Shown here one piece after another: positions 12,676-63,711 of a stretch of 64,000 bases of DNA. Below the pieces are notes generated by a model that saw nothing but the letters and a program-made list of their open reading frames with translations, searched no databases and was not told where the DNA came from. The number at the start of each line of letters is the position of its first letter. Positions within the stretch are counted from its first letter, which is position 1. The position numbers and the translations under genes are program-made. Source of the DNA: Acidimicrobiales bacterium (GTDB lineage: Bacteria; Actinomycetota; Acidimicrobiia; Acidimicrobiales; DATDAH01); NCBI GenBank assembly GCA_016794585.1, contig JAEUJM010000026.1, positions 200,153 to 264,152 on the forward strand, given 5' to 3'.

Positions 12676-14160
12676 ATGCGCCGCACCCCGTTCGTCGTCG
12701 CCCTGGCCGTCGTCGCGGCCCTGTTCGTCGCCGCCTGCGGCGGCACCTCCGGCGGGGGAGCGGGCGACGACGAGGCCGGTGACGCCGGCGCCGGGGACGC
12801 CGGTGCGCTGCCCGAGTGCCCCGTCACCGCGCTCGACGACGTCCCCGAGAGCGACCTGCCCATCGAGGTGACCCTCTGGCACGCGTCGGTGGCCAAGGGC
12901 GAGGAGGCGATCAACGAGATCGCCGATGCCTACAACGCCTCGCAGGACCGGGTGCGCATCGAGGTCGAGAACCAGGCGACCTCGTTCGAGGAGCTCCAGC
13001 GCAAGTACAACCAGGCCATCCCGAGCAACGACCTTCCCGGCATCGCCCTGCTCGAGGACACTCAGACCCAGGCCATGGCCGACTCCGGCACGATCCTGCC
13101 GGCGCAGTCCTGCATCGCCGCCGACGACTACGACATGTCGGACTTCGTCCCCACCCTCGTGGACTACTACTCGGTCGACGGCAACCTCTACCCGGCGTCG
13201 ATGACGGGCTCGAACGCCCTCATCTACTTCAACGTCGACCACTTCGAGGAGGCCGGTCTCGACCCCGAGAACCCGCCCACCAACCTCGACGAGATCCGCG
13301 AGGCGGCCCAGGCCATCAAGGACGCCGGCGTCACCGAGCACCCCTTCGTGTGGCACATGGCCCCGTGGCAGGTCGAGTTCTGGCTGACCGGCAACCACAT
13401 CCCGTTCGTGGACAACAACAACGGCCGGGAGGCGCCGGCCACCGAGTCGGTGCTGAACAGCGAGGGCGCCCTCGAGCTGTTCCAGTGGCTCAAGGACATG
13501 AACGACGACGGCCTGATGCTCCCCATCACCGACGTGCCCGGCCAGATCGACCAGTACCTCGCGCTCGCCAACGAGCAGGGCTCGTTCAGCGTCGAGGCAT
13601 CGAGCGCGGCCACCTCGGTGGAGGCCTTCCTCAAGGGCCAGCTGAGCGCTGGTGACCTCACCGACGGCCGGGTCAACGCCGACGTCGACCTGAGCGGCCT
13701 GAACATCGGCGCCGACGAGTTCCCCGGCATGGAGGAGCCCGGCCACATCCAGGTGGGCGGCGGCGTCTACTACATGATGAGCACCACGCCCCCCGAGGTG
13801 CAGGCGGCGGCGTGGGACTACATGAAGTGGGTGAACTCGGTCGACATGCAGGTGGTGAGCAACCTGGTCGGCAGCAACGACCCCACCCTGGTGAGCGTGG
13901 CCGACGTGCCCGAGGTGGCCCGCACCTGGGCGGACACCCTCTCGGGGCAGTGGCTGGCCATCTCGTTCGAGCAGCAGCAGAACGGCATCGATCCCGAGTT
14001 CCCCGGCCCGCTGGTCGGGCCCTACACCGAGATGCGCACCGCGGTCCGCCAAGCGGTCGAGGACATGCTCCTCAACGACGCCGCGCCGGAGGACGTGCTC
14101 GCCGACGCCGAGGCCGAGATCACCGAGGCCATCGAGCGGTACCAGGAGGAGAACTTCTAG
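12676..14160 (+). CDS. ABC transporter extracellular solute-binding lipoprotein (family 1), paralogue 2
   Basis: Lipobox VAACGG. By eye, alignable with the 11088..12605 product over its full length with many identical blocks (ECPV..AL, LQRKY.QAIPS.DLP, AGLDPENPPT, DDGLMLPI, GGGVYYM..TTPPEVQAAAWD, YQEENF). Confidence 0.88.
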   Translation: MRRTPFVVALAVVAALFVAACGGTSGGGAGDDEAGDAGAGDAGALPECPVTALDDVPESDLPIEVTLWHASVAKGEEAINEIADAYNASQDRVRIEVENQATSFEELQRKYNQAIPSNDLPGIALLEDTQTQAMADSGTILPAQSCIAADDYDMSDFVPTLVDYYSVDGNLYPASMTGSNALIYFNVDHFEEAGLDPENPPTNLDEIREAAQAIKDAGVTEHPFVWHMAPWQVEFWLTGNHIPFVDNNNGREAPATESVLNSEGALELFQWLKDMNDDGLMLPITDVPGQIDQYLALANEQGSFSVEASSAATSVEAFLKGQLSAGDLTDGRVNADVDLSGLNIGADEFPGMEEPGHIQVGGGVYYMMSTTPPEVQAAAWDYMKWVNSVDMQVVSNLVGSNDPTLVSVADVPEVARTWADTLSGQWLAISFEQQQNGIDPEFPGPLVGPYTEMRTAVRQAVEDMLLNDAAPEDVLADAEAEITEAIERYQEENF

Positions 14161-27065: not shown

Positions 27066-27228
27066 CGGTAACGGTCAGCCCGAGGGGTGTGGGCCGTTGC
27101 CGCCCTGAGCGCCGACCGATGGCCGTGCCGGCGTGGACTCGCGGTGCGACGGAGACCCCTACCGCCGCCGACGGTAACGTCGGCAGGGGTCCGTGGCCCC
27201 GAACCGCCACCGACACAGGGGGATCGAC

Positions 27229-29028
27229 ATGTTCGACGTGGTCATCCGAGGGGGCGTGCTGGTGGACGGGACGGGGGCCGAGCGTCGGCCCGCCGACGTC
27301 GCCATCGAGGGCGGGCGCATCGCCGCCGTCGTCGAGCCGGGCGGCCTCGACGATGCCGTGGCCGCCGGGGACGCCGCCCGGGTCATCGAGGCCGAGGGGC
27401 TGGTCGTGGCCCCGGGGTTCGTCGACCTGCACACGCACTACGACGCCCAGGCCTTCTGGGACCCGACCCTCAGCCCGTCGCCCCTCCACGGCGTCACCAC
27501 CGTGGTGGCCGGCAACTGCGGGTTCAGCATCGCCCCGTTGAGCGGCGACCCCGCCGACGGTGAGTACCTGATGCGGATGCTGGCCCGGGTGGAGGGCATG
27601 CCCCTCGAGTCGCTGGCCGAGGGCGTGCCGTGGGACTGGCGCAGCACCGCCGAGTACCTCGACCGCCTCGACGGCACCCTCGCGGTGAACGCGGGCTTCC
27701 TCGTGGGGCACTCGGCGCTTCGTCGTGCGGTCATGGGCCACGACGCAGTGGGGGAGGAGGCCACCGACGAGCAGGTCGACGCCATGGCGGCCCTGTTGGC
27801 CGAGGGCCTCGCCGCCGGCGGGCTCGGCTTCTCGTCGTCCTGGGCCACCACCCACAGCGACGGCGAGGGCGACCCGGTGCCCTCCCGCCACGCCACCCAC
27901 GACGAACTCGTGCGCCTCTGCTCGGTGCTGCGCGACCACCCGGGCACGGCGCTCGAGTTCATCCCCACGGTGGGCCCGTTCGCCGACGAGCACATGGACC
28001 TGATGGCGGACATGTCCCTCGCCGCCGACCGGCCCCTCAACTGGAACGTCCTTGTGGCCGCCAACGCCCGCTCGGCCGACGACGTCGCCCAGCGCCTCTC
28101 CGCTTCGGACCGGGCCGCCGAGCGGGGTGCCCGCGTCCTGGCCCTGACCGTGCCTGACCTCATGCGCATCCGTCTGTGCTTCCTCACGGGCTTCCTGCTC
28201 GACACGTTCCCCGGCTGGGCGAAGGTGATGACCCTCCCGGCGGACGAGAAGCTCGCCGCCCTCGCCGACCCGGAGGTGCGCCGGCGTCTGCTCGACGGGG
28301 TGAACAGCCCCGAGGCCGGCCCCTTCGCCCGCATCGCCCAGTGGCACCGCATGACCGTCGAGGAGGCCTTCACCGACGAGACCAAGCGCCACGAGGGGCG
28401 CCTCGTCGGCGACATCGCCGAGGAACAGGGCAAGGAGCCCTTCGACGCGCTGCTCGACATCGTGGTCGAGGACGGGCTGCGCACGGTGATCCTCCCGCCC
28501 CAGAGCGGCGACGACGAGGACAGCTGGGCGCTGCGGGCGCAGACGTGGCGCGACCCTCGGGTCATCCTCGGCGCCTCGGACGCCGGCGCCCACCTCGACT
28601 TCATCGCCACCTTCAACTACACGACGGCGTTCCTCGGCGACTCGGTGCGCGACCGGGGGCTCATGGGTCTCGAGGAGGCCGTGCACAAGCTGACCGACGT
28701 TCCCGCCCGCCTCTACGGGCTGACCGGGCGCGGGCGCCTCGCCGAGGGCTGGATCGCCGACGTCGTGGTCTTCGATCCCGACCGCATCGCCCCCGGCCCG
28801 GTCGGCATGCGCGCCGACCTCCCGGCCGGCGCCGCCCGCCTCTACTCCGAGCCCGAGGGCGTCGAGCACGTGCTCGTCAACGGCGTCGAGATCGTCGGCC
28901 CCGGCGCCACCTTCACCGACGCCCGCCCCGGCACCCTCCTGCGCTCCGGCCGCGACACCGAGACCGTCAGCCTTCACACTGGCTCCTCGTCCCTCGGAGC
29001 GCCTTCGGCATCCGGTTCGTCGTCGTAG
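27229..29028 (+). CDS. D-aminoacylase / N-acyl-D-amino-acid deacylase family amidohydrolase
   Basis: MFDVVIRGGVLVDGTG...APGFVDLHTHYD. ATG 27229 is preceded by AGGGGGA. The last ~18 codons lie inside repeat copy A1. Confidence 0.85.
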   Translation: MFDVVIRGGVLVDGTGAERRPADVAIEGGRIAAVVEPGGLDDAVAAGDAARVIEAEGLVVAPGFVDLHTHYDAQAFWDPTLSPSPLHGVTTVVAGNCGFSIAPLSGDPADGEYLMRMLARVEGMPLESLAEGVPWDWRSTAEYLDRLDGTLAVNAGFLVGHSALRRAVMGHDAVGEEATDEQVDAMAALLAEGLAAGGLGFSSSWATTHSDGEGDPVPSRHATHDELVRLCSVLRDHPGTALEFIPTVGPFADEHMDLMADMSLAADRPLNWNVLVAANARSADDVAQRLSASDRAAERGARVLALTVPDLMRIRLCFLTGFLLDTFPGWAKVMTLPADEKLAALADPEVRRRLLDGVNSPEAGPFARIAQWHRMTVEEAFTDETKRHEGRLVGDIAEEQGKEPFDALLDIVVEDGLRTVILPPQSGDDEDSWALRAQTWRDPRVILGASDAGAHLDFIATFNYTTAFLGDSVRDRGLMGLEEAVHKLTDVPARLYGLTGRGRLAEGWIADVVVFDPDRIAPGPVGMRADLPAGAARLYSEPEGVEHVLVNGVEIVGPGATFTDARPGTLLRSGRDTETVSLHTGSSSLGAPSASGSSS

Positions 29029-29128
29029 CGGCTCCGCTCCGCTCCGCCACGTACCCCGGTCCCACACTGGCTCCTCGTCCCTCGGGGCGCCTTCGGCATC
29101 CGGTTCGTCGTCGTAGCGCCTCCGCGCC
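28974..29128 (-). repeat. Two copies (28974..29048, 29061..29128) of the ~75-nt GGAGC/GAA-hairpin repeat family, inverted relative to the other two loci
   Basis: The reverse complement reads GGCGGAGCGGAGCGGAGCCGCTACGACGACGAACCGGATGCCGAAGGCGCTCCGAGGGACGAGGAGCCAGTGTGA. It aligns to 50841..50991 and 58804..58957. Confidence 0.85.
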
Positions 29129-29147
29129 ACGGGCTAGAACGGGTCCC

Positions 29148-29789
29148 ATGCGCGAGCTCGCCGACGAGGTCCGGAGCATCATCGGGGAGCTGGCGGCCAA
29201 CACCGTGCCGGCGGGCAAGGAGGAGCACGCCCTCGCCCTGGCCCGGGAACTGCGGGCGCTGCTCGACGGTCCCCGCCGGGAGCGCTGGTACGACGGGCTG
29301 ATGGACGGCACCGGCATCCAGACCGCCATCGACGACCCGGTGAGCCCCTTCCTCGCCCACGGCGCCTTCCGGGGAACCGAGAACCCGGTGGCGCCGCCGC
29401 TGGTCCTCACCGATGAGGTGCGCTCGGACGGCTCCCGGGTGAAGGTGGGCCACGTCACCTTGAACCTGGCCTACGAGGGCCCGCCCCACGGCGTGCACGG
29501 AGGTTTCGTGGCCGGCCTCTTCGACGACATCCTCGGCGCCGCCCAGGGCTACGTGCGCGATCCCGGCGTCACCGGCCGCCTCACCGTGCGGTACCGCCAC
29601 ATCACCCCGGTCGAGGAGGAGCTGCGCTTCGCGGCCTGGATCGAGTCCGACGACGGGAAGCGCATCGTGGCCAAGGCCACGTGCCACGCCGGCGGAGGCG
29701 ACCTCCTCACCGCCGAGGCCGAGGCGCTGTTCATCCGGGTCGACTTCGAGGAGATCCAGGCCCGCATGGCCGCCCGCCGCGACGCCTGA
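29148..29789 (+). CDS. PaaI-family hotdog-fold thioesterase
   Basis: 213 aa. GPPHGVHGGFVAGLFDDILG, typical of PaaI/4HBT thioesterases. Confidence 0.7.
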   Translation: MRELADEVRSIIGELAANTVPAGKEEHALALARELRALLDGPRRERWYDGLMDGTGIQTAIDDPVSPFLAHGAFRGTENPVAPPLVLTDEVRSDGSRVKVGHVTLNLAYEGPPHGVHGGFVAGLFDDILGAAQGYVRDPGVTGRLTVRYRHITPVEEELRFAAWIESDDGKRIVAKATCHAGGGDLLTAEAEALFIRVDFEEIQARMAARRDA

Positions 29790-35231: not shown

Positions 35232-35719
35232 CACGTCGTCGCTTGCTTTCCCGGTCGCCCGCCGGGCTCGTCGGCTCGCTCCTGACGCTGTCGCGGGGGC
35301 GCCTGCGGCGCGGGGCTCGGCGAAACCGTCGCTCCGCCGACGCCCCCGTCGGGCTCCCTGTCGGTCGCCGACTCCCGCGCGCTGGGTCCTCCGCCGGGTG
35401 GACGTATCGGGCCTACCGGTCCTCAGCGGGGGGCGGGGGGTCGGTGGTGGGGGGCTTCGGTGGTGGGTCCGAGTCGTCTGCCGCTCTGGACTGACCGGCT
35501 CACGTCGTCTCTCGCTCTCCCGGTCGCCCGCCGGGCTCGTCGGCTCGCTCCTGACGCTGTCGCGGGGGCGCCTGCGGCGCGGGGCTCGGCGAAACCGTCG
35601 CTCCGCCGACGTCCCCGTCGGGCTCCCTGTCGGTCGCCGACTCCCGCGCGCTGGGTCCTCCGCCGGGTGGACTCATCGGTTCCACCGGTCCTCAGCGGGG
35701 GCATGGGGTCGGTGGTGCG
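35232..35719 (+). repeat. Direct repeat, 2 x ~220 bp, period 269 bp, non-coding
   Basis: 35232..~35452 and 35501..~35719 are nearly identical (scattered substitutions, one 1-nt indel near the 3' end). The unit has several GC hairpins (CCCGG-n7-CCGGG, GCGCC-tgc-GGCGC, CCGACG-cccc-CGTCGG, GTCGG-tcg-CCGAC). Confidence 0.9.
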
Positions 35720-50047: not shown

Positions 50048-50072
50048 CGCTCGGCCGTCCCACTTGCGAGTA

Positions 50073-50088
50073 TCGAACGTATGTTCGA
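50073..50088. promoter_or_regulatory. Consensus actinobacterial LexA (SOS) box upstream of and overlapping imuA'
   Basis: TCGAAC-GTAT-GTTCGA, embedded in a perfect 13-4-13 palindrome at 50066..50095. TTGCGA (50064) and GATACT (50087) are 17 nt apart and look like -35/-10 elements. Confidence 0.85.
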
Positions 50089-50914
50089 TACTCGCGCGAT
50101 CGCCCTCGCCGAGCCCACCCCGCCCCGGCTCGCCTCCGTGCCCCCGGGTCCCGAGGCCTCGTGGCGGGGCGCGGTCGCCGGGCGGGCGCTGGCGGGGCTC
50201 GAGGCGGGGTTGCGTCCCACCACGCTGGCCGACCAGCGGTGCCTGCCGGTCGTCGACGCCCTCGGGCCGCTGCTGGGTGAGGCCGGCCTGCAACGGGGGT
50301 CGGTGGTCTCGGTGGTGGGCCCGGCGGGGTCGGGGGCCACCTCGTTGGCCCTCGCCCTGGTGGCCGGGCCCTCGGCATCGGGGTCCTGGGTGGCGGCGGT
50401 GGGCCTGCCGTGGCTGGGGCTGCCCGCCGCGGCCGAGGCGGGGGTGAACCTGGGGCGCCTGGCCCTGGTGCCGGCACCCGAGCCCGCGGCCTGGGCCGGT
50501 GTGGTGGCTGCCCTGGTCGACGCCTTCGACGTGGTGTTGCTGCGCCCCGAGCGGCGCGCCCGTCCCGCCGACGCCCGTCGCCTCACCGCCCGGGCCCGCG
50601 AGCGGGGTGCGGTGCTGGTGCTGCTCGGCCCGACGGGGGGCTGGCGCGAGGGGCCCGACGTCGTGCTGCGCATCGACCGCACCCACTGGGAGGGCTTGGG
50701 CGACGGCCACGGCCGCCTGCGGTCGCGCCGGGTGCGGGTCGAGGCCACCGGCCGGCGCCGCGCCGCCCGCCCCCGCACCGCCGCCGTCGACCTCCCCGCT
50801 CGGCCGCCGACACCGACGCCGGCCGCCCTGCCCACGTTGCGCAGCGGAGCGGAGCAGCGGGTGGCGCTTGACGCGGATGGCGAAGCCGTCCCGACGGAGG
50901 AGGGACCAGTGTGA
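50081..50914 (+). CDS. imuA: ImuA' (RecA/SulA-fold mutasome accessory protein)
   Basis: Position directly upstream of imuB and behind a LexA box. Degenerate Walker-A-like VVGPAGSGATSLALAL. Start uncertain: ATG 50081 lies inside the LexA box, and there is an in-frame GTG at 50138. The C-terminal ~24 codons lie in repeat copy B1. Confidence 0.75.
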   Translation: MFDTRAIALAEPTPPRLASVPPGPEASWRGAVAGRALAGLEAGLRPTTLADQRCLPVVDALGPLLGEAGLQRGSVVSVVGPAGSGATSLALALVAGPSASGSWVAAVGLPWLGLPAAAEAGVNLGRLALVPAPEPAAWAGVVAALVDAFDVVLLRPERRARPADARRLTARARERGAVLVLLGPTGGWREGPDVVLRIDRTHWEGLGDGHGRLRSRRVRVEATGRRRAARPRTAAVDLPARPPTPTPAALPTLRSGAEQRVALDADGEAVPTEEGPV

Positions 50915-50991
50915 GGCGGAGCGGAGCGGAGCAGCGGGTGGTGCCTGACGCGGATGGCGAAGCCGTCCCGACGGAGGAGGGACCAAGCTGA
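50841..50991 (+). repeat. Head-to-tail pair (50841..50914, 50915..50991) of the ~75-nt GGAGC/GAA-hairpin repeat family
   Basis: B1: GCAGCGGAGCGGAGCAGCGGGTGGCGCTTGACGCGGATGGCGAAGCCGTCCCGACGGAGGAGGGACCAGTGTGA. B2: GGCGGAGCGGAGCGGAGCAGCGGGTGGTGCCTGACGCGGATGGCGAAGCCGTCCCGACGGAGGAGGGACCAAGCTGA. Confidence 0.9.
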
Positions 50992-52640
50992 TGGGCCCGG
51001 TCCGGACGCTGGTGGTGTGGTGCCTCGACTGGCCGGTGGTGGCGGCCGGGGTGGCCCTCGACGTGCCCGCCGCGGTGCTCCACGCCAACCGGGTGGTGGC
51101 CTGCTCGCCCGCGGCGCGGGCCGAGGGCGTGGTGGTGGGCCTGCGCCGACGGGAGGCGCAGGGGCGGTGCCCCTCGCTCGTGGTGCTCGAGCGTGACCTC
51201 GGCGCCGAGGCCCGCCGCTTCGAGCCGGTGCTGGCCGCGGTCGAGACCCTCACCCCACGGGTCGAGGTGACCACGCCCGGCACGTGCGCCTTCGCCACCC
51301 GGGGGCCGTCGCGCTACTTCGGGGGCGACGAGGCGCTCGCCCAACGGGTGGTGGGGGTGGTGGCCGACGCCCTCGCCGGCCGGGGCGAGGTGGCGGTGGG
51401 CGTGGCCGACGGGCCCTTCGCCGCCCGCCTCGCGGCGCGCCATGCCGGCGAGAGCGCCGCCAGAGGCGTCGGGACCGGCCCGCGGGTCCACGACCGGGCC
51501 CCCGCTCTCGTGGTGGCCCCGGGGGAGAGCGCCGCCTTCCTCGCCCCGCTGCCGGTGGCCACCCTCGAACGGCCCGACCTCGTCGACGTGCTCGAGCGCC
51601 TCGGCCTGCGCACCCTCGGGGCGGTGGCGGCCCTGCCCGCCGCCGACCTGGTGGCCCGCTTCGGCCTCGAGGGCCAGGGCGCCCACCGCCTGGCGGCCGG
51701 CCTCGACGAGCGCCCGCCCGATGCCCGCCGCCCGCCGCCCGACCTGGCCGTGCACGCCGAGCTCGACCCGCCCGCCGAGCGCGTCGACACCGCCGCCTTC
51801 GTGGGCAAGTCCCTCGCCGACGAGCTGCACGCCCGCCTGGCCGCCGAGGGCCTGGCCTGCACCCGCATCGCCATCGAGGTCGAGACCGAGCACCAGGAGC
51901 ACCTCGAGCGCCTCTGGCGCCACGAGGGCGCGCTGAGCGCCGCCGCCATCGCCGACCGTGTCCGCTGGCAGCTCGACGGCTGGTTGAACGGCAACGCCGC
52001 GGCGCGCCCCACCGGGGGGATCATGCGCCTGGCCCTGGTCCCCGACGAGGTGTTGCCCGCCCGGGGCCGCCAGCTCGGCTTCTGGGGCGGTGAGGCCGCC
52101 GCCGGCGAGCGGGCCCGGCGGGCCCTCGCCCGCGTCCAGGCCCTGCTGGGGGCCGAGGCGGTGGCGCTGCCCGAACCGCGAGGCGGGCGGCTGCCCGTCG
52201 AGCAGGTGTCGCTGGTCCCGGTCGAGGCCCTGGGGGAGGGGGAGCGGCCTCCCGACGAAGGCCTCGGCGCCGGTGGGGCCGCCGCGGCGCCAGGCGACGG
52301 CGCCCTCCGGGGTGCCCCCTGGCCGGGGCGGGTGCCGCCCCCGTCGCCGGCGGTGGTCCACCCCGAGCCGGTGCCCGCCGAGGTGGTCGACGCCGCCGGC
52401 ACGCCGGTCGGGGTGAGCGGCCGTGGCCTGCCCACCGCCACCCCGGCCCGGTTGTCGGTGGCGGGAGGCCCGTGGGCCCCGGTGGCGGCGTGGGCGGGGC
52501 CGTGGCCCCTCGATCAGCGCTGGTGGGACCCCGACGCCCACCGCCGCCAAGCCCGCTTCCAGGTGCTCACCGAGGCGGGGGTGGGGCACCTGCTCACCCT
52601 CGAAGGCGGTCGCTGGTGGGTCGAGGCCGTCTACGACTGA
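50991..52640 (+). CDS. imuB: ImuB (catalytically inactive Y-family polymerase-like mutasome subunit)
   Basis: N-terminus RTLVVWCLDWPVVAA and a Y-family fold layout. Located between imuA' and, further on, dnaE2. Confidence 0.85.
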   Translation: MGPVRTLVVWCLDWPVVAAGVALDVPAAVLHANRVVACSPAARAEGVVVGLRRREAQGRCPSLVVLERDLGAEARRFEPVLAAVETLTPRVEVTTPGTCAFATRGPSRYFGGDEALAQRVVGVVADALAGRGEVAVGVADGPFAARLAARHAGESAARGVGTGPRVHDRAPALVVAPGESAAFLAPLPVATLERPDLVDVLERLGLRTLGAVAALPAADLVARFGLEGQGAHRLAAGLDERPPDARRPPPDLAVHAELDPPAERVDTAAFVGKSLADELHARLAAEGLACTRIAIEVETEHQEHLERLWRHEGALSAAAIADRVRWQLDGWLNGNAAARPTGGIMRLALVPDEVLPARGRQLGFWGGEAAAGERARRALARVQALLGAEAVALPEPRGGRLPVEQVSLVPVEALGEGERPPDEGLGAGGAAAAPGDGALRGAPWPGRVPPPSPAVVHPEPVPAEVVDAAGTPVGVSGRGLPTATPARLSVAGGPWAPVAAWAGPWPLDQRWWDPDAHRRQARFQVLTEAGVGHLLTLEGGRWWVEAVYD

Positions 52641-52693
52641 GGCGTGTGCGACTGAGGCGTGTGCGACGGAGGCGTGTGCGACGGAGGCGTATG
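52634..52693. repeat. Tandem repeat, 4 x 15 bp
   Basis: CGACTGAGGCGTGTG x2, CGACGGAGGCGTGTG, CGACGGAGGCGTATG. It fills the gap between the convergent stop codons of imuB (52640) and the methyltransferase gene (52696). Confidence 0.9.
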
Positions 52694-52695
52694 CC

Positions 52696-54060
52696 TCAGG
52701 AGGAGGTGATGCAGAACAGGACGCGAACGGCCTGGATGGCGCCCGCGTCGTCGCGCCGAGCGACGTTGGCCTGGACCACGCGGGTCTCGCCGAAGGTCAG
52801 GGCCTGCACGATGAGGTCCTCGTCCGCCTCGAGGACCGTGGCGTCGACGAGCGGGCCGAGCGCTCCAGCGATGTGCTCCTGGGTCTCGCGGGGCGATGCA
52901 CCCAGCAGGGAGGCCCCGGGGAGGCCCACCGCCTCGGCGGCCCCCTCACTGGCCTCGCAGATCCGCTCGTCGAGATCGACCACGAACCAGTGGGGCTCGA
53001 TTCCCGGCGCGTGGCCGGCCAGCACGGCATGGCCCCGCTCGTCGTCGGTCGGTCCGAGGTGCACCAAGGGCAGTCCGAGCAGCTCTGGCGCCGCGGGCGG
53101 CGAGGGCGGTGGCGCTGGGGGGTCGAACCGGAGGACCCGGGGTTGCCCCCAGGGTCCCGACGGCCTCGGGGACGGCTGCTTGCGGAGGACGATCGCGGTC
53201 TGCGTGTCGTAGCCCCTCTCGACCACGGCGCACACCTCGGCGTAGGAGGACCACATCTCGATGAGCGACTCGCGGTCGTGCAGCACCATGGCCTCGGGGT
53301 GCCCCCGCCCGAGGACGATCATCGCGGAGTCGGTGCCCAACCCCCCGAGGTCCACGGTGGAGGAGGCGAGGAACTCGCTCAGCCAGTCCTCGCCCGGCCG
53401 TTCGAGCGTCGCCTGCAACCAGGCCTGATCCTGGATCGTGAGGTAGAGCAACCCACCCGGCTCGGTCACCCGGAGCAGCTCGAGCACCCACCCGTCGGCG
53501 AGATCGGGGATGTGGGTGAACACGGAGCCGGCGACGACGAGGTCGAAGGTGCTGTCCGGGAAGGGCAGGTGGGGAAACGTGGAACAGGTCGAGAAGCGCA
53601 ACGGCGGCGACAGGTTGCGGCGGGCCCATTCGATGCGGGCGGCGTGGATGTCGACGCCCCACATCTCCCGCTCCGCCCCCGGCACCCGCTGGTGCAGTCC
53701 GAGGAGGAGTCGGCCCGTGCCACAGCCGAAGTCCAACACGTTGCCGAGGTCGGCCAGGGTGACGTCCAGCTCGTCCAGCGCGTCGACGATGGAGCGGACG
53801 TTGCGCTCGACTCCCGCCTCGTAGTCCTCGTTCACGGACCACAGCGACGCGGGCGGGATGCGCTCGTGGAGGGGAACCGATCGGTCGACGGGTTCGATGG
53901 GTACCAGCAGGTCGTGATCGACGGGCTCGAGCGGGAGGTACGTCGCCAAGGCCGCCGGGTGGTTGAGCAGCGACGCCATGATGACCGGGTCCTGGAGCAC
54001 GGTCTGGCGGGTCTCGGCGCGGACGAAACGTCGGGCTCGTTGCTTGATGCGGCGAAGCAC
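52696..54060 (-). CDS. Class I SAM-dependent methyltransferase with a C-terminal PAS-like domain
   Basis: SAM motif I VLDFGCGTGRL, post-I/II region (FDLVVAGSVFTHI), Pro-rich linker. The C-terminal ~110 aa have a PAS-like pattern (tentative). Confidence 0.7.
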   Translation of the reverse strand: MLRRIKQRARRFVRAETRQTVLQDPVIMASLLNHPAALATYLPLEPVDHDLLVPIEPVDRSVPLHERIPPASLWSVNEDYEAGVERNVRSIVDALDELDVTLADLGNVLDFGCGTGRLLLGLHQRVPGAEREMWGVDIHAARIEWARRNLSPPLRFSTCSTFPHLPFPDSTFDLVVAGSVFTHIPDLADGWVLELLRVTEPGGLLYLTIQDQAWLQATLERPGEDWLSEFLASSTVDLGGLGTDSAMIVLGRGHPEAMVLHDRESLIEMWSSYAEVCAVVERGYDTQTAIVLRKQPSPRPSGPWGQPRVLRFDPPAPPPSPPAAPELLGLPLVHLGPTDDERGHAVLAGHAPGIEPHWFVVDLDERICEASEGAAEAVGLPGASLLGASPRETQEHIAGALGPLVDATVLEADEDLIVQALTFGETRVVQANVARRDDAGAIQAVRVLFCITSS

Positions 54061-54110
54061 GCCGGGACGCTATCGGGTCGACGGACCGGGACCGTCGTCG
54101 TCTCCGGTGC

Positions 54111-55841
54111 TCAGACGCCGGGGGAGTCGAGCGCCTCTCGGAGCTGAGGGCCCAGGGTCTCGTACATCGCGGCGGCGATGACCGCGGCGGCGCGCTCATT
54201 GTGGTGGACCCAGTCGAACATCAGCGTGCCGTCGACCCCGTCGAGGCTGCTCCCGAGGTCGATCACCCGCTCGTCGAGCTGCCCACGGGCTTCCTCCCAC
54301 CGGGGTCGCTCCCACTCGAGGTCGTCCTGGGTCATGCGGGTCACCTCGAGCACCCGGGGGTCCGCCGGGCCAGCCATCGTGTAGATGCTGGGTTGGTAGT
54401 AGGTCGCCATCGGGATCCCGTAAGCCGAGGCGATGCGATGCGACAGCTCGACGCCCTGGTTGTAGATGCGGGCGGCGGTGGCCGGGTCGCCCACCGGGAC
54501 CGTGTTGCCCTCCGTGCCCACCGCGAAGCTCAGGGCCGCGTCGTTCTCGGCCAGCAGGGTCCCGATCTGCGTCCCGAACATGTGCGACGGGCGGATGGGC
54601 GCGTCGGCGCCCAGGTACAGCGACAGGTCGTTCATGCCGTCGTAGAAGACGATCAGGTCGGGCGGCGGGCGCTCGGTGAGCAGTTGGCCGAGCAGCACGG
54701 TCTGCTGCCAGTTCGTGTAGGCCACCGTGCCGAAGTTGGTGATCTCGACCGGGACCCCGTCCTGCTCGGCCAGGCGGACCACTTCGGACGCGATGGTGTG
54801 ATCGTCCCGCTGGTTGTAGCCGAAGGCCGCCGACCCGCCGAAGAACCACACCTGCACGGGATCGAGCCCGGTGGGCGTCGTCGGTCGATAGCTCCGCCGG
54901 GCGCCCTCCTCGACGTTCAGGTAGCGGGAGTGCACCTCGTCGGCGTTGCGCCACGTGAGCGAGGCGTCGTACTGGGGTGCGGTCTGGTACTCCCCTTGCG
55001 CCAGCTCGGCCGACCACGGCTCGACCTCGAAGTACTGCCAGGCCGGCAGGGTGGGGGCGAGGGCCGTGGCGCCCTCGTCCGCGCCGTCGGCTCCATCCGC
55101 GCCGATCACGGGGGCCGGGGAGTCCCGGGTCAGGGTGACGAAGACCTCGTAGGCGCCGAACGCCGCGGCCACGGCCAGCACGCAGCACGCGACGCCGGCG
55201 AGGGCGCCGTGGGCGGTGGTGCGCAGCCGCCGGCCTTCCTCCCGCTCGTCGGCGTAGAGCCGTTCGGGGAACTCCCGCCGACGCCGGCGGGTGCGAGGGT
55301 CCCAGCGACCTCGCCTGCGGGGCGACGGGCCGAGGGGGTCCCAGCGCAGCACTCGCAGCACGAGCCAGACCGGGGTGACCACGAGGAGGGTGAAGGGGAC
55401 GAAGAACACCCAGGTGAGGGCGATGCCGACGCCGTGGCTGATCGCGTGGAGCACCCGCGCCGCGCCCCGGTCGAAGGTGGGGCTGAGGCGCCGGGCAACG
55501 GTGACGGCTACGACGACCACGAGCAGCAGCGCGGCGAGGGTGCGGTGGCCACGCCACACGAGGAAGGCGACCACGGCGACGCCGACGGCCAAGCCGATGA
55601 GGGGCGAGGCCGAGGGGGTCGCGGGAGCCTGCGGCGCTTCCACCTCCTGCCACCCGGGCACGGGAGGGCCGGCGGGCGCCGTGTCGGTGGGCTCGTCGGC
55701 CTGTACGCGCTGCCCCCCGCCGCTCACGGCGGAGAGCGTAGACGCCGTCCCCCACGCGCGACCGGCGGCGGCGCGAGACTGGCGCATGGCCGGTGGGGGT
55801 GGCGAGGAGACCGACGGGCCCGACGCCCGACGTCGGCGCAC
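54111..55841 (-). CDS. Membrane protein with a C-terminal SGNH/GDSL-like hydrolase domain
   Basis: Four or five hydrophobic helices, then VWFFGGSAAFGY (block I-like), YDGMNDL (block III-like), DWVHHN (block V DxxH). Start uncertain: 55841 and 55787 would overlap the divergent gene, so GTG 55727 is more plausible. Confidence 0.65.
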   Translation of the reverse strand: MRRRRASGPSVSSPPPPAMRQSRAAAGRAWGTASTLSAVSGGGQRVQADEPTDTAPAGPPVPGWQEVEAPQAPATPSASPLIGLAVGVAVVAFLVWRGHRTLAALLLVVVVAVTVARRLSPTFDRGAARVLHAISHGVGIALTWVFFVPFTLLVVTPVWLVLRVLRWDPLGPSPRRRGRWDPRTRRRRREFPERLYADEREEGRRLRTTAHGALAGVACCVLAVAAAFGAYEVFVTLTRDSPAPVIGADGADGADEGATALAPTLPAWQYFEVEPWSAELAQGEYQTAPQYDASLTWRNADEVHSRYLNVEEGARRSYRPTTPTGLDPVQVWFFGGSAAFGYNQRDDHTIASEVVRLAEQDGVPVEITNFGTVAYTNWQQTVLLGQLLTERPPPDLIVFYDGMNDLSLYLGADAPIRPSHMFGTQIGTLLAENDAALSFAVGTEGNTVPVGDPATAARIYNQGVELSHRIASAYGIPMATYYQPSIYTMAGPADPRVLEVTRMTQDDLEWERPRWEEARGQLDERVIDLGSSLDGVDGTLMFDWVHHNERAAAVIAAAMYETLGPQLREALDSPGV

Positions 55842-56964
55842 CGAGCGCTGGTTCGTCCATCAGGGGCTGCCGCACTTCATCGAGGACTACAGCGTCACCG
55901 GCGACGTGCTCACCCGGGCGCTGCCCTTCCTCACCCTCGTGTTCGTACTCGAGGCCTTCAACACCTTCAGCGACGAGCGCGAGGGCTGGGCCGAGGTCGC
56001 TCCGTTCTTCGTGGGCCTCGCCGTGCTCCTGGGGGCGCTGGTCCTGGTCAACCGCCTGCGGGGGCGACGACCGTTGCAGCGCCCCGACCGGGTCGGCGGG
56101 GTGGAGATCGCGGTGTTCCTGCTCGTGCCCCCGCTGCTGCCCGCCATCCTCCACGACGACCGGCTGGTCGACTCCCTCGGGATCGTGGCGTTCAACCTGG
56201 TGGTGCTGCTCGTGGCCTACATCGTCACCAGCTACGGGTTGTTGCCCATGACCCGGTGGGGCATCCGCCAGCTCCTCGGGCAGTTCGGCGACCTGGCCAA
56301 CCTCGTCACCCGCTCGCTGCCCCTGCTGTTGATCTTCACGGCGCTGATGTTCATGACCGCGGAGATCTGGCAGCTCTGCTCCGGGCTCGGCGGGCCCTTC
56401 TTCTTGATCGCGGTGCTCTTCCCCTTCCTCGCCGGCACCCTCTTCCTGCTGCTGCGGGTGCCCGACGAGCTCGACGCCGTGGCCCGCTTCGCGGACTGGC
56501 CGACGGTGCAGCAGGTCGCCGAGGGCACCCCGGTCGAGGGCCTGGACACGACGGGGCTCGACGATCCTCCGACGACCCCACCCCTCGGGCGCCGCGCCTG
56601 GGTGAACGTCGGGCTCGTGCTGGTGGTGAGCCAGAGCGTGCAGATCGTGCTGGTCGCACTGGTCGTGGGCCTGGCCTACGTCGCCTTCGGCCTGTTCGCG
56701 ATGAGCGAGCGGGTCACCGAGGAGTGGACGGTGACCGACGTGAACGTGATCGCCAGCTTCGAGCTCTTCGGCAACGAGGCGGTGCTCACCGACAGCTTGT
56801 TGAAGGTCGCCGCCTTCGTGGCCGCGTTCGCCGGCCTGCAGTTCACCCTCTCGGCGTTGACCGACACGACCTACCGCCAGGAGTTCTTCGAGCGGGCGGT
56901 TCGGGGCGTGCGCCAGGCCCTGGCCGTGCGGGCGCTCTACCTGGCCCGCCTGCTCGAGCCCTGA
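55786..56964 (+). CDS. Hypothetical polytopic integral membrane protein
   Basis: 392 aa from ATG 55786, about 8 hydrophobic helices. No motif recognised. Confidence 0.6.
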   Translation: MAGGGGEETDGPDARRRRTERWFVHQGLPHFIEDYSVTGDVLTRALPFLTLVFVLEAFNTFSDEREGWAEVAPFFVGLAVLLGALVLVNRLRGRRPLQRPDRVGGVEIAVFLLVPPLLPAILHDDRLVDSLGIVAFNLVVLLVAYIVTSYGLLPMTRWGIRQLLGQFGDLANLVTRSLPLLLIFTALMFMTAEIWQLCSGLGGPFFLIAVLFPFLAGTLFLLLRVPDELDAVARFADWPTVQQVAEGTPVEGLDTTGLDDPPTTPPLGRRAWVNVGLVLVVSQSVQIVLVALVVGLAYVAFGLFAMSERVTEEWTVTDVNVIASFELFGNEAVLTDSLLKVAAFVAAFAGLQFTLSALTDTTYRQEFFERAVRGVRQALAVRALYLARLLEP

Positions 56965-56982
56965 GCCGTCCGCACTCCCCGG

Positions 56983-58704
56983 TCAGGGAGCGCCCGTCTC
57001 GGCCGTCCAGAGGGTGACCTCCCGGCCGTCGGGCAGCGCCACGCGCCCCACGGGACGGAAGCCGGCGGCACGAGCGGCCTGGGTGGTGACCTCCTCGGGC
57101 AGGGTGGTGTTGTCCCACGAGAGGCCCCCGGGCCCGGTCACCACCTGGTCGATCCCGGCCGCTCGGAGCTCCCGGAGACGCGCCGTGAGGGCGTCGGGGT
57201 CGGTCAAGACGGGGATCTCGGCGAGGTCGAGCGAGCGCGCCCCGAAGAGGTCAGCGCTCGACACCTGGCTGGCCAACGACACGATCGAGGAGTTGAACAG
57301 GGGGCCCTCGACGGTGACGAGGACCTCCGGGTCGGGATCGTCGGGCGGCTGGTGGGCCTCGGTGAGGTCATGGAGCTCGGCGCCGGCCGCGAGCCAGCCG
57401 TCGTCACGCCCGTCGTTGGTGCGGTCCGTGTGGTCCTCGATGTAGCGATCGATGATGGAGCGGCCGTCGGAGACCCGCAGCCGGGCCCACGGCGCCGCGG
57501 TGAGGGCCACCTCGTGGTCGAAGGCCGAGGTGACCTGGGACTTCATGGCCACGTTGAACAGGCAGAGACAGGCCACGAGCACGGCGAAGGTGCCGGCGAC
57601 CGCCCGCGGACGGGCCTTGGTGGTGGCGGCGAGGGCGAGGACGGTGGTGGGGGCGAGGAGGGGGAGCACGAAGCCGGTGCCGGTGTTGCGCGAGCTGAGC
57701 AACGCCGCGAAGCCCGTCCCGAACGCCACGAGGAGGGGCAGGGCATCGGACCGGGCCACCCGTCGGGCGAGGTCCCGGGCCGGGGTCGTGCACACGAGGG
57801 TCACGAGGCCGACCACGGTGCCGACGCCGAGCAGGAGGGCGATGGGGACGTAGAAGCCGTCCGACACCAGGGACACGAGGTCCGACAACCAGAACCGCAG
57901 CGAGTCCACGGAGGCGGGGCCGTAGCTCGTGCTCTCGTCGCCGTACCCGTAGCCCGTCAGGTAGTCCAGGACCTCGCGGGCGCTGAAGAAGTACCAGCTG
58001 GCGGCGATCGCCCCACCGATGGCGAGGGCGAGGAGCAGGTTGATCCCAGCGGCGCGTCGCCGGGTGGGGCCGCTCTGCCACGCCAGGAGGACGGCCGCGG
58101 CGAGGAGCGCGGGGACGTAGGCGAGCATGAAGGTGCGTGACAGCACGACCAGCCCCAGGCAGGCGCCGAAGCCCATCGCCCATCCGCGGTGGGCGAAGCG
58201 CTCGGAGCGCAGGAGGGCGACGAGGGCGGCGGTGAAGGTGGCCGCGCTGGCGACGGCGAAGTGGTAGTGGCGGGTGTAGTCGGTGACCGCCGGCAGGGTG
58301 GCCACCACGAGCGCGGCCAGGACCGACCACCACGGAGGCAGGAGCCGTCGGGCGAGGAGGAAGGCGCCCACGACGAGGGCCGCGAAGAAGACCAGGTTGG
58401 TGAGGTGCCCCACCTCGACCGAGCGTCCGAACAGGTACTGGAAGGGGGCGGTGACGAGGGGGACGAGCGGGGCCAGATAGCCGGAGTCACGCCAGAGCAG
58501 GAAGGGTCCGGTGAGGATGCGGTGGTTCGCGCTGCTGGTCGAGAAGGCCAGGGTGAGGTACGCGGCCTCGTCGATGTCGAGGGGACCGCCTCGGCGCTCG
58601 CGGTGCAGCCAAACGGCGTGGAGCGCGCCCAGGACGACCACGATGGCGGCCACGGCGAGCCTCGGCCCGAGCGATCGCTGGGCGGGCACAGGGGCGTCGT
58701 CCAC
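56983..58704 (-). CDS. GT-C fold glycosyltransferase (GT39/ArnT/PMT_2-like)
   Basis: 573 aa. About 11 TM helices, with an early loop DIDEAAY (DxD/E-like). The soluble C-terminal domain is typical of polyprenyl-phosphate-sugar-dependent transferases. Confidence 0.7.
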   Translation of the reverse strand: MDDAPVPAQRSLGPRLAVAAIVVVLGALHAVWLHRERRGGPLDIDEAAYLTLAFSTSSANHRILTGPFLLWRDSGYLAPLVPLVTAPFQYLFGRSVEVGHLTNLVFFAALVVGAFLLARRLLPPWWSVLAALVVATLPAVTDYTRHYHFAVASAATFTAALVALLRSERFAHRGWAMGFGACLGLVVLSRTFMLAYVPALLAAAVLLAWQSGPTRRRAAGINLLLALAIGGAIAASWYFFSAREVLDYLTGYGYGDESTSYGPASVDSLRFWLSDLVSLVSDGFYVPIALLLGVGTVVGLVTLVCTTPARDLARRVARSDALPLLVAFGTGFAALLSSRNTGTGFVLPLLAPTTVLALAATTKARPRAVAGTFAVLVACLCLFNVAMKSQVTSAFDHEVALTAAPWARLRVSDGRSIIDRYIEDHTDRTNDGRDDGWLAAGAELHDLTEAHQPPDDPDPEVLVTVEGPLFNSSIVSLASQVSSADLFGARSLDLAEIPVLTDPDALTARLRELRAAGIDQVVTGPGGLSWDNTTLPEEVTTQAARAAGFRPVGRVALPDGREVTLWTAETGAP

Positions 58705-58758
58705 GGAGGGAACGTACTGCCGGGCCGGTGGTATCCGGCAAGCGGGTCCGGGACACTA

Positions 58759-58774
58759 GCGAACATACGTTCGA
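58759..58774. promoter_or_regulatory. LexA (SOS) box upstream of dnaE2, one mismatch to consensus
   Basis: GCGAAC-ATAC-GTTCGA (extended CTAGCGAAC-ATAC-GTTCGATAG), immediately followed by the -10-like TAGTGT (58775..58780). Confidence 0.8.
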
Positions 58775-58803
58775 TAGTGTGGGACCATGACCCACCGAGA
58801 GGC

Positions 58804-58957
58804 TGCGGAGCGGAGCGGAGCAGCGGCGAGTGCCTGCGTCGGATCCCGAAGGGGCGCCGACGGAGGAGGCGCAGGCCAGCATGCGCAGTGGAGCGGAGCA
58901 GCTGCACCTGCCCGCGTCGGATCCCGAAGGGGCGCCGACGGAGGAGGCGCGAAGTAG
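58804..58957 (+). repeat. Tandem pair (about 58804..58884 and 58885..58957) of the ~75-nt GGAGC/GAA-hairpin repeat family, forming the dnaE2 leader
   Basis: C1: TGCGGAGCGGAGCGGAGCAGCGGCGAGTGCCTGCGTCGGATCCCGAAGGGGCGCCGACGGAGGAGGCGCAGGCCAGC. C2: GCAGTGGAGCGGAGCAGCTGCACCTGCCCGCGTCGGATCCCGAAGGGGCGCCGACGGAGGAGGCGCGAAGTAG, then ATG. Confidence 0.9.
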
Positions 58958-62431
<3,474 letters not shown>

Positions 62432-62561: not shown

Positions 62562-63635
62562 ATGGGGGAGACCACGGCGAAGGGCACGGAACCCGTTCCG
62601 CGCCGCGACGGGACCATCACGCTGGCCGACGGGAGGCGCCTCGGGTACGCCGAGTACGGCACCGAGGGGGGCGACGCCGTCCTCTGGTTCCACGGGACGC
62701 CCGGCGCCCGCCACCAGATCTCGCCCGAGGTCAACGCCATCGCCGACGCCCGCGGCGTGCGGGTCATCACCGTCGAGCGCCCGGGCGTGGGGGACTCGAC
62801 CCCGCACCTGCACGGGCGCATCCTCGACTGGGCGGGCGACATCGACCAGCTCACCGCGCAGCTCGAGGTCGACCGCTTCGCCATCGCCGGCCTCTCGGGC
62901 GGTGGCCCCTACGTGCTGGCCTGCGCCCACGCCTTCCCGGACCGGGTGGTGGCCGGCGCCGTGCTCGGAGGCGTGGCGCCCACGCAGGGCGAGGACGCCG
63001 CCGAAGGAGGCCTGGTGGCGCTGGCCAACCGCTTCCGTCTGCCCCTCGAGTGGCTGCGCCAGCCCCTCGGCTACACGCTGTGGGGAGCGGTGAACCTGCT
63101 GATGCCCTTCCAGGAGCAGGCCGTCGGCGCTTACCTGCACTTTCAACCCCCGGGCGACCAGGAGGTCTTCAAGCGGCCGGGCATGAAAGAGATGTTCCTG
63201 AAAGACATCGCCACCGGCTCCCGCAAGCACTTCCACGCAGTCATCTACGACGTGGTGCTCTTCACCCGGGACTGGGGCTTCTCGCCCCGCGAGGTCCGGG
63301 TGCCCATCCGCTTCTGGCACGGCGACGAGGACCACATCGTCCCCCTCGTCCACGGCCACCACGTGGCCTCGCTGATGCCCGACGCCGAAGTCTTCGAGCG
63401 CCCCGGCGAGAGCCACCTCGGCGCGCTGGCCGTCCTCGACGAGGTGCTCGACGTGCTGCTCGGCCTCTGGCCCGACCGCACCAACGCCCCGGCGAGGGTG
63501 GCGGCGAGGAAGGCCGCCACCAAGAAGGCGCCGGCCAAGAAGAAGGCCACGGCCAAGAAGGCCGTGCCCAAGAAGGTGCCGGCGAAGAAGGCGGCGGCGA
63601 AGAAGGCGGCGGCGAAGAAGGCCACGGCGAAGTAG
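62562..63635 (+). CDS. Alpha/beta-hydrolase with a Lys/Ala-rich (AKKA-repeat, histone-H1/HupB-tail-like) C-terminus
   Basis: Nucleophile elbow GLSGGG, VLWFHGTPG. Tail KAATKKAPAKKKATAKKAVPKKVPAKKAAAKKAAAKKATAK. Confidence 0.8.
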   Translation: MGETTAKGTEPVPRRDGTITLADGRRLGYAEYGTEGGDAVLWFHGTPGARHQISPEVNAIADARGVRVITVERPGVGDSTPHLHGRILDWAGDIDQLTAQLEVDRFAIAGLSGGGPYVLACAHAFPDRVVAGAVLGGVAPTQGEDAAEGGLVALANRFRLPLEWLRQPLGYTLWGAVNLLMPFQEQAVGAYLHFQPPGDQEVFKRPGMKEMFLKDIATGSRKHFHAVIYDVVLFTRDWGFSPREVRVPIRFWHGDEDHIVPLVHGHHVASLMPDAEVFERPGESHLGALAVLDEVLDVLLGLWPDRTNAPARVAARKAATKKAPAKKKATAKKAVPKKVPAKKAAAKKAAAKKATAK

Positions 63636-63711
63636 GCCACGGCGGAGAAGGCGGCGGCGGAGAAGGCGGCGGCGAGGCGGGCGGCCGGCTAGCGCGGCCG
63701 CCGCCGGCGGC

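Follow-up and report, generated by a model that had tools for sequence, protein, structure and literature searches.

MIRUs are 40-100-bp units that lie in tandem between genes, carry open reading frames (ORFs) overlapping the flanking genes, show both filled and empty sites, and behave as variable-number tandem repeats (VNTRs) (PMC3184786). REP2 elements of Neisseria contain internal stem-loops, an RBS (ribosome-binding site) as well as an ATG, and are located upstream of genes (PMC3184786). Here we analyze a 64,000-nt stretch of DNA from an Acidimicrobiales bacterium (DATDAH01; GCA_016794585.1, contig JAEUJM010000026.1, positions 200,153-264,152 of the forward strand), hereafter the window, in which a tandem repeat fills the junction between imuA' and imuB. 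Our findings lead us to conclude, with a probability of roughly 0.8, that this junction holds two copies of a small, structured, dispersed repeat that resembles MIRU, REP and REP2 elements and can be read by ribosomes, and that the repeat is no dedicated regulator of imuB. The repeat is a new, undescribed family, although its kind is itself already known.

A three-hairpin repeat unit

The window contains six copies of a unit of ~77-78 nt, arranged as three direct tandem pairs. When the whole window was searched with a covariance model and no filters, exactly these six copies were recovered at 53-97 bits, with the next match at 14.8 bits. A composite pattern gave seven matches covering five of the six units and none in shuffled sequence; the unit that it missed, A1, has a degenerate 5′ end. 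The pair at the imuA'-imuB junction consists of B1 (50839-50915, plus strand) and B2 (50916-50991, plus strand), which are 96% identical at a period of 77 nt; B2 has a degenerate 5′ hairpin, scores 53 bits and ends at the imuB start codon. A second pair, C1 (58805-58882) and C2 (58883-58957), is likewise on the plus strand, repeats every 78 nt, belongs to subtype II (see below) and fills the 5′ leader of dnaE2. The third pair, A1 (29128-29051) and A2 (29050-28974), lies on the minus strand, antisense to both flanking genes. The original prediction, made from the window sequence, had described two head-to-tail copies occupying the imuA'-imuB junction and the recurrence of the element as a pair near dnaE2 and, inverted, at 29 kb, and the same pairs were recovered by the covariance model. 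It had not recognized the element, and we could not assign it either: no Rfam family matched the window at the gathering score, relaxed scans of the three arrays returned nothing or chance-level hits far below threshold, and the literature searched contained no description of the motif, nor of REP-type repeats in Acidimicrobiia or Microthrix.

A degenerate pattern scan over 185,579 species genomes returned at least 120 matches, mostly chance matches in unrelated phyla, from which true members were sorted by nhmmer with a profile built from the six window copies; counts for the family outside the window are counts among the matches listed, and the loci concerned were examined as 8-kb fragments. 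The resulting alignment (A2) comprises 40 copies in 29 arrays from eight genomes, namely the window and seven metagenome-assembled genomes (MAGs). RNAalifold and direct pair counting on this alignment, with 500 shuffles and slid positions as controls, revealed a family unit of ~78 nt with three local hairpins, SL1, SL2 and SL3, and the consensus GTGA GGCUGC-GGAGCGGAGCGGA-GCAGC ... GAACCGGAU GCC-GAA-GGC GCUCC-GA-C-GAA-G-GA-GGAGC CAAUGUGA. SL1 (columns 5-9:23-27) is a 5-bp stem that closes the nearly invariant GGAGC-repeat loop GGAGCGGAGCGGA and occurs with the stem variants CUGC/GCAG, UGGC/GCCG, UGCC/GGCG and CAGC/GCUG; in B1 it spans 50836-50858 (plus strand), with the stem GUUGC/GCAGC. SL2 (columns 50-52:56-58) has 3 bp and a GAA loop, with the variants GCC/GGC, GGC/GCC and CCC/GGG and 10 double changes in each of two pairs; it lies at 50879-50887 (GGC-GAA-GCC) in B1 and at 50956-50964 in B2, on the plus strand. 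SL3 (columns 59-63:73-77 and 66:70) pairs GCUCC with GGAGC around GA-C-GAA-G-GA, its inner C-GAA-G or G-GGA-C being flanked by G.A juxtapositions, and its outer stem also occurs as GUCCC/GGGAC, GCGCC/GGCGC, GCACC/GGUGC, GUGGC/GCCAC and GCCCC/GGGGC. In B2, SL3 reads GUCCC-GA-C-GGA-G-GA-GGGAC (50965-50983, plus strand) and holds GGAGGAGGG; its equivalent in B1 is at 50888-50906.

Support for these hairpins from compensatory covariation was strong. Pairing cells reached 94% versus 77.8% in shuffled alignments, cells with double changes 68 versus 17.4, pairs with a double change 10 of 14 versus 5.9, and the covariation score 0.398 versus 0.119; none of the 500 shuffles reached any of these values, and slid controls scored at most 0.118. 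Even better conserved than the stems are the SL1 loop and the CCGGAU linker, both nearly invariant. At a ratio of ~3:1, G:U pairs are commoner than C.A mismatches, which favors the GGAGC strand. SL2 and SL3 are almost wholly Watson-Crick and can therefore form on either strand. The original prediction had argued for selection on a nucleic-acid structure over a peptide, and the covariation score, the differing reading frames and the antisense orientation of about one third of the arrays bear this out. It had also named a generic repeat as the contrary case; the family does resemble one in having many copies in both orientations, yet it has formal covariation support.

Parts of the predicted unit had to be redrawn. 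The tandem layout and the purine block stand, whereas the (GGAGC)2-3 block turned out to be the loop of a separate hairpin. The predicted GAA hairpin survives in its top 3 bp, which are compensatory across the 40 copies, but not in its lower stem: the longer GGAU...GUCC stem was rejected, as its pairs are invariant or broken, pair 47:61 failing in 18 of 39 copies, since the column with which column 61 covaries is column 75. The lower-stem strand pairs with the purine block GGAGGAG, and the RBS-like block therefore lies in SL3. Two other candidates were also discarded, namely the thermodynamically best long-range fold, in which the GGAGC loop pairs with GCUCC (covariation 0.093 versus 0.106), and single-sequence folding as a guide, whose z-scores ranged from 0.08 to −2.3 at a GC content of 73% and which recovered no common fold. 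As a separate observation, the GGAGC-repeat loop and a neighboring GG make up four GG runs (A2 columns 10-22; for example 50918-50935), an arrangement that has been discussed for two-tetrad G-quadruplexes (PMC9570295).

Junctions, relatives and gene context

Coding frames and gene starts around the arrays were called by GC3 (third-codon-position GC) frame analysis, and the imuA'-like, imuB, dnaE2 and amidohydrolase genes were confirmed with Pfam. At the junction itself, the imuA'-like gene (50081-50914, plus strand) has a weak RecA/AAA match, and imuB (50991-52640, plus strand) has an IMS/Y-family domain. As predicted, B1 codes for the final 24 codons and the TGA (50912-50914) of imuA', and B2 ends in GGAGGAGGG (50973-50981), followed after 9 nt by the imuB ATG at 50991, which is overlapped by a TGA at 50989-50991 (TGATG). 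The claim that the repeat supplies the imuB RBS stands in part: GGAGGAGGG is the sole Shine-Dalgarno (SD)-like block 5′ of imuB, but it is not a free RBS, since it forms the 3′ strand of the covarying SL3. A 26-codon mini-ORF (VRRSGAEQRVVPDADGEAVPTEEGPS and a stop; 50911-50991, plus strand) links the two genes, with its GTG overlapping the imuA' stop (GTGA) and its TGA overlapping the imuB ATG (TGATG). At the other end of imuA', a LexA-box-like palindrome, CGAACGTATGTTCG (50074-50087, plus strand), overlaps the ATG (50081) within a longer palindrome at 50067-50096; it was judged by the LexA box consensus. Because the palindrome contains the imuA' ATG, the gene may lack a leader or may in truth start further downstream.

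The closest relative found, represented by locus L121, has an ImuB that is 88% identical and genes that are 87-94% identical at the DNA level. Its imuA'-imuB junction is without the repeat: imuA' stops 38 codons earlier, imuB starts at GTGATG, and the spacer holds a different, perfect 22-bp palindrome and a 17-nt duplication. Homology between the window and L121 breaks exactly across this spacer, and the C-terminus of the window ImuA' is longer by 38 residues, of which the last 24 come from B1. In 80 metagenome-contig loci (738 kb in total), found by a scan with ImuB, the covariance model detected only three decayed copies, none of them at an imuA'-imuB junction. The window sequence is present in wastewater and sludge sequencing runs, and one sludge DNA contig joins 50781 to 50916 via 69 other letters, which is a variant with B2 and without B1. 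From these comparisons the repeat pair at imuA'-imuB appears to be a lineage-specific gain that would have added 38 residues to ImuA' and taken the place of the ancestral spacer. Beyond the junction, the stretch from imuB to dnaE2 is longer in the window than in L121 by ~3.1 kb (52643-55771) and ~1.9 kb (56959-58898), and a minus-strand gene at 56983-58704 is part of this extra DNA; the dnaE2 start of L121 lies only 1.3 kb after imuB.

The 29-kb pair tells a similar story. It lies between an amidohydrolase gene confirmed by Pfam (27193-29028, plus strand) and a PaaI-like thioesterase gene (29148-29789, plus strand; ATG at 29148), and, being antisense to both, can provide neither with an RBS. 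Instead, 18 codons of the amidohydrolase ORF lie within unit A2, ahead of a TAG stop (29026-29028), and encode the tail SLHTGSSSLGAPSASGSSS; the protein has 611 aa versus 582-586 aa in relatives without the element. The orthologous junction is a 51-nt spacer without the element in L205/L206, is occupied by another repeat in L202, and is again without the element in L204, though the L204 MAG has family members elsewhere. In sludge DNA, precisely one unit (29053-29134) is skipped by contigs of three runs and the whole array by contigs of two. At 28974-28981 the contigs run into many different flanks. Given that relatives and sludge populations differ in sites and in unit numbers, both are, as judged from these sequences, gained and lost on short timescales.

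A second, unrelated palindromic family fills the same intergenic sites in relatives. Its members have the ends GTTCTGG(CGCC)...(GGCG)CCAGAAC and lie at L121:9911-9960, L202:2783-2900, and L204:2361-2376 and 2727-2781; the L121 member is the perfect 22-bp palindrome of the imuA'-imuB spacer, and the L202 member is a 66-nt tandem pair. A pattern search of the window for this family found none.

The dnaE2 leader presents a different picture. Upstream of dnaE2 (58958-62431, plus strand; Pfam), the plus strand carries a LexA-box-like palindrome, CGAACATACGTTCG (58760-58773), and TAGTGT (58775-58780), a putative −10 element; a sigma-70 promoter and terminator scan around dnaE2 found nothing. An upstream ORF (uORF) of 56 codons (58787-58957, plus strand) begins with an ATG at 58787, 7 nt past the putative −10, spans C1 and C2, and ends in a TAG that abuts the dnaE2 ATG. 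L121 has the same layout with one decayed unit versus two in the window, and its 22-codon uORF ends in TGATG; in the decayed unit half of SL1 is deleted and SL2 is mutated, and SL3 and the purine block are retained. Because L121 shares this layout, the dnaE2 copy appears to be older and is possibly functional, whereas the imuA'-imuB pair is not conserved. In a more distant relative, a decayed copy (L189:16725-16809) lies in frame inside the dnaE2 coding sequence itself, where it adds ~21 residues (…DQLRGGGAAGEVMPGWRSRTDEGGAKVM…) just ahead of the conserved LTGCRKG motif.

The units fall into two subtypes. Type I units have GCC- or GGC-GAA in SL2, GCUCC/GGAGC in SL3 and the end CCAAUGUGA, and occur in both orientations beside stop codons. 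Type II units have CCC-GAA-GGG in SL2 and GCGCC/GGCGC in SL3; they include C1/C2, L016/L094, L028, L044, L076, L081, L089, L114 and L121, and at all nine independent loci sampled they are in the sense orientation with a start codon 6-25 nt downstream.

Outside the window, among the matches listed, true members were seen only in seven Acidimicrobiales/Microthrixaceae MAGs, most of them named from activated sludge, at 21 loci. Including the window, there are at least 40 copies in at least 29 arrays of one to three units, each 77-89 nt long, present as direct arrays or single units and all at gene boundaries. Extrapolating from the second, unascertained arrays found in five of the 8-kb fragments and the three arrays in 64 kb, we estimate that an array occurs about every 20-30 kb, so that each genome would have a number on the order of 100. 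The arrays share no gene context: a tblastn comparison of proteins from the window with the family loci turned up no gene in common, and no flanks are common between genomes except in the orthologous pair L016/L094, which has three units in L016 versus two in L094. A scan of viral contigs gave no matches. In wastewater and sludge DNA runs, 31-mers of the core reach 8-28 times the depth of the flanks, and in sludge metatranscriptomes the core reaches 25-150 times flank depth, a value that comes from unstranded contigs and is inseparable from copy number.

By the GC3 calls, 15 arrays are sense to their neighbors, 9 are antisense, 4 lie between convergent genes and 1 is unclear; orientation could not be related to replication, as GC skew in the window was too noisy. 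Antisense copies match the covariance model as well as sense copies do. The genes downstream of ten sense copies are functionally unrelated, encoding methylmalonyl-CoA mutase, a TPP (thiamine pyrophosphate)/Rieske enzyme, a CoaD-like enzyme, a LigD primase-polymerase, a glycosyltransferase, NuoF, an acyltransferase, and thiolase-like, ChsH2-like and LarA-N proteins. What these sites have in common is the manner in which genes are joined. In 11-13 of the ~15 sense copies upstream of a gene, either the stop of a crossing ORF overlaps or abuts the start of the gene that follows, or the terminal GTG of the element is itself the gene's start codon (L038 and L039), the joints seen being ATGA, GTGA, TGATG and TAGATG, with ATGA or GTGA in L076, L081, L089 and L114. 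Since the reading frames differ between loci, the peptide is irrelevant. The clearest example of this stop-restart design is the three-unit array at L089:2420-2671 (period 89 nt), in which each unit carries an ATG-to-TGA mini-ORF and the mini-ORFs are chained by TGATG overlaps. Among antisense arrays, the in-frame stop of the converging gene lies 0-12 nt from the 3′ end of the element in 8 of the 13 examined, and in L015, L016/L094 and L106 it falls exactly on the last triplet, which is TCA or TTA instead of TGA.

Comparison with known families and readings of the repeat

Among known families, MIRUs are the nearest analogues overall. Both are found in Actinobacteria, form direct intergenic arrays of units of comparable length (40-100 bp in MIRUs versus 77-89 nt here), contain GC-rich internal inverted repeats, and show filled versus empty sites between relatives. 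MIRUs have small ORFs that overlap flanking stops and starts, as do the GTGA and TGATG at imuA'/mini-ORF/imuB and the TGATG chains of L089. Unit number varies in MIRUs and likewise here, as seen in the one-unit skip in three sludge runs, the three versus two units of L016/L094, and the two dnaE2 units versus one in L121. Here, by contrast, nine arrays are antisense to both neighbors and four lie between convergent genes; Supply et al. are said to have found MIRUs in the same orientation as adjacent genes. The host class also differs, being Acidimicrobiia here, and we know of no three-hairpin covarying structure or SD-start-stop end in MIRUs. The comparison with MIRUs is one of description, and in view of this, the difference in host class and the antisense copies, we have not filed the repeat as a MIRU.

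REP/BIME/REPIN elements, which are mobilized by RAYT (Y1 HUH) transposases, are likewise short, GC-rich, hairpin-forming extragenic repeats found at gene ends, in both orientations and in many copies, with compensatory stems. They differ in being single imperfect palindromes of 20-40 nt, typically in inverted pairs, whereas the unit described here has 78 nt, three hairpins and a head-to-tail arrangement. Neisseria REP2 is the nearest analogue for type II alone, as both lack terminal inverted repeats, contain internal stem-loops, an RBS and a start codon, and lie in sense directly upstream of ORFs. This likeness is one of description; no promoter was found in the unit, and type I is associated with stop codons in both orientations. 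Like Rickettsia palindromic elements, the repeat can be translated within host proteins (the ImuA' tail, the amidohydrolase tail and the L189 dnaE2 relic), but most copies are intergenic, and in-frame internal insertion was seen once. Finally, the repeat differs from MITEs (miniature inverted-repeat transposable elements) in having no terminal inverted repeats, its ends GTGAGGCTGC... and ...GGAGCCAATGTGA being non-complementary.

We propose that the repeat is tolerated inside operons because ribosomes could read through it and because it would re-create stop-restart joints. A sense unit would be bracketed by YGA/GTGA joints and end in the purine block, (A/G)TG and TGA, so that an ORF entering the unit would stop at a codon overlapping the restart codon. 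At the locus studied here, ribosomes that complete imuA' at GTGA would restart on the 26-codon mini-ORF, melting B2 and then stopping at the TGATG of the imuB start, whereas without upstream translation the SD-like block of imuB would stay locked in SL3. The predicted outcome is an enforced translational coupling of imuA' and imuB. Because antisense copies preserve the hairpins just as well, these probably act at the DNA level, in the spread of the element itself or in its maintenance. One possibility is that a single-strand hairpin is recognized by a transposase or recombinase and that arrays grow by slippage.

Several points weigh against this interpretation. The family sample is small, consisting of 8-kb fragments among the matches listed rather than a whole genome, and the gene starts and orientations are our own GC3-based calls. 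The supported hairpins average −16 kcal/mol versus a minimum free energy of −34.5, and SL3 has a mean probability of 0.34; sequestration of the SD-like block thus gains no thermodynamic support from single-sequence folding models, and because such folding disfavors these hairpins, the structure rests on covariation, not on energy. No transposase turned up in the window or the 8-kb fragments, where RAYT genes were not searched for, and neither terminal inverted repeats nor a clean target duplication were found in the units and loci examined: YGA...TGA brackets the units, antisense flanks do not match, and the empty sites of relatives are too diverged for clean boundaries or are filled by other repeats. 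Mobility is consequently argued only from presence and absence between relatives. Translation of the mini-ORFs is a prediction, and the RNA data consist of unstranded contigs. Lastly, the retention of type II at dnaE2 in a relative, always in sense, suggests that some copies do have a host function.

A more ambitious proposal, which we offer tentatively and consider doubtful as a whole, is that the repeat is a portable cassette for translational coupling. It would be a mobile unit with a stop-restart joint, a hairpin-locked SD sequence and a start codon; type II would be a domesticated 5′ leader whose short, possibly leaderless uORF gates dnaE2 after LexA release, and the GGAGC loop may be read by a trans-acting factor across dozens of operons. 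If true, wherever the unit lands, be it in a leader or between two cistrons, the gene downstream would come to depend on translation upstream of it.

It is unlikely that the element is a host-domesticated post-transcriptional signal, in which a protein or RNA acting in trans would bind both the GGAGCGGAGCGGA loop and the GGA-rich SL3 and thereby regulate many operons jointly, through their translation or decay, with type II as a portable 5′ leader. Such binding would account for an SL1 loop and linker better conserved than the stems, for the strand preference seen in the ratio of G:U pairs to C.A mismatches, for the abundance of the core in sludge metatranscriptomes, for the fixed position of type II ahead of start codons, and for the decayed L121 copy, in which just SL3 and the purine block survive. 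But antisense copies are equally well conserved, RNA depth is inseparable from copy number or DNA carry-over, nine loci are a small sample, and no trans factor was identified in this analysis. Slightly less probable still is an intrinsic terminator or REP-like 3′-end stabilizer, with GC-rich hairpins past stop codons ending transcription or blocking 3′ exonucleases. The converging stops close to the element in 8 of 13 antisense arrays, the four arrays between convergent genes, and SL2 and SL3 stems able to form on either strand agree with this role; the units lack a T-run, however, the terminator scan around dnaE2 was empty, and many copies sit inside operons or directly before starts (imuA'-imuB, a nuoF-type gene, L089), where termination would be harmful.

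The original prediction allowed for a regulatory role at imuB; a role tied to imuB or the SOS mutasome is not supported. A dedicated cis-regulatory RNA that acts after DNA damage on the translation of imuB and dnaE2 or on the stability of their mRNAs is largely refuted, and we regard it as very improbable. Two of the three window loci are indeed LexA-box genes, a copy also lies upstream of dnaE2 in L121, and one of the ten other downstream genes encodes the LigD primase-polymerase. Yet the third window locus and the other nine downstream genes are metabolic, and in the seven other genomes the copies adjoin unrelated genes. Neither the L121 junction nor any other imuB locus has the element between imuA' and imuB, the 738 kb of imuB loci yielding only the three decayed copies elsewhere; about one third of arrays are antisense to their neighbors; and natural populations carry alleles missing units. 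A coding module that adds a conserved peptide (...SGAEQ...PDAEGAPTEEGP) to proteins is the least credible reading and is refuted as a general explanation, because, although ImuA' and the amidohydrolase are truly extended by repeat-derived codons and the L189 copy is in frame inside dnaE2, at least two frames and both strands are used among the copies, the peptide shifts with the compensatory changes in the stems, and variation tracks base-pairing and not codon position.

Other repeats in the window and significance

Three further features of the window involve other repeats. A 208-nt direct repeat at 35232-35708, 94% identical with a spacing of 269 nt, is seemingly non-coding, GC-rich and unrelated to the repeat studied here. 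At 63476-63688, ~12 units of the 15-nt tandem repeat GAAGAAGGCNNCGGC lie inside an ORF and probably encode an alanine/lysine-rich tail. The segments 11290-12603 and 12863-14158 are 71-75% identical over ~1.3 kb, which looks like a tandem gene duplication.

The repeat has consequences for how these genomes are read. When unrecognized, it leads to false C-terminal extensions (38 aa in ImuA' and ~27 aa in the amidohydrolase), spurious small ORFs and wrong starts in annotation, and assemblies of these abundant wastewater bacteria break at repeats. The unit-number alleles found in sludge could serve as strain markers for Microthrixaceae. The link between imuA' and imuB seen here appears to be a recent, dispensable insertion and is not to be taken for conserved control of the mutasome. 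With its unusually clear covariation and readable stop-SD-start design, the family offers a good system for studying how MIRU-like elements survive in operons and whether they impose translational coupling.

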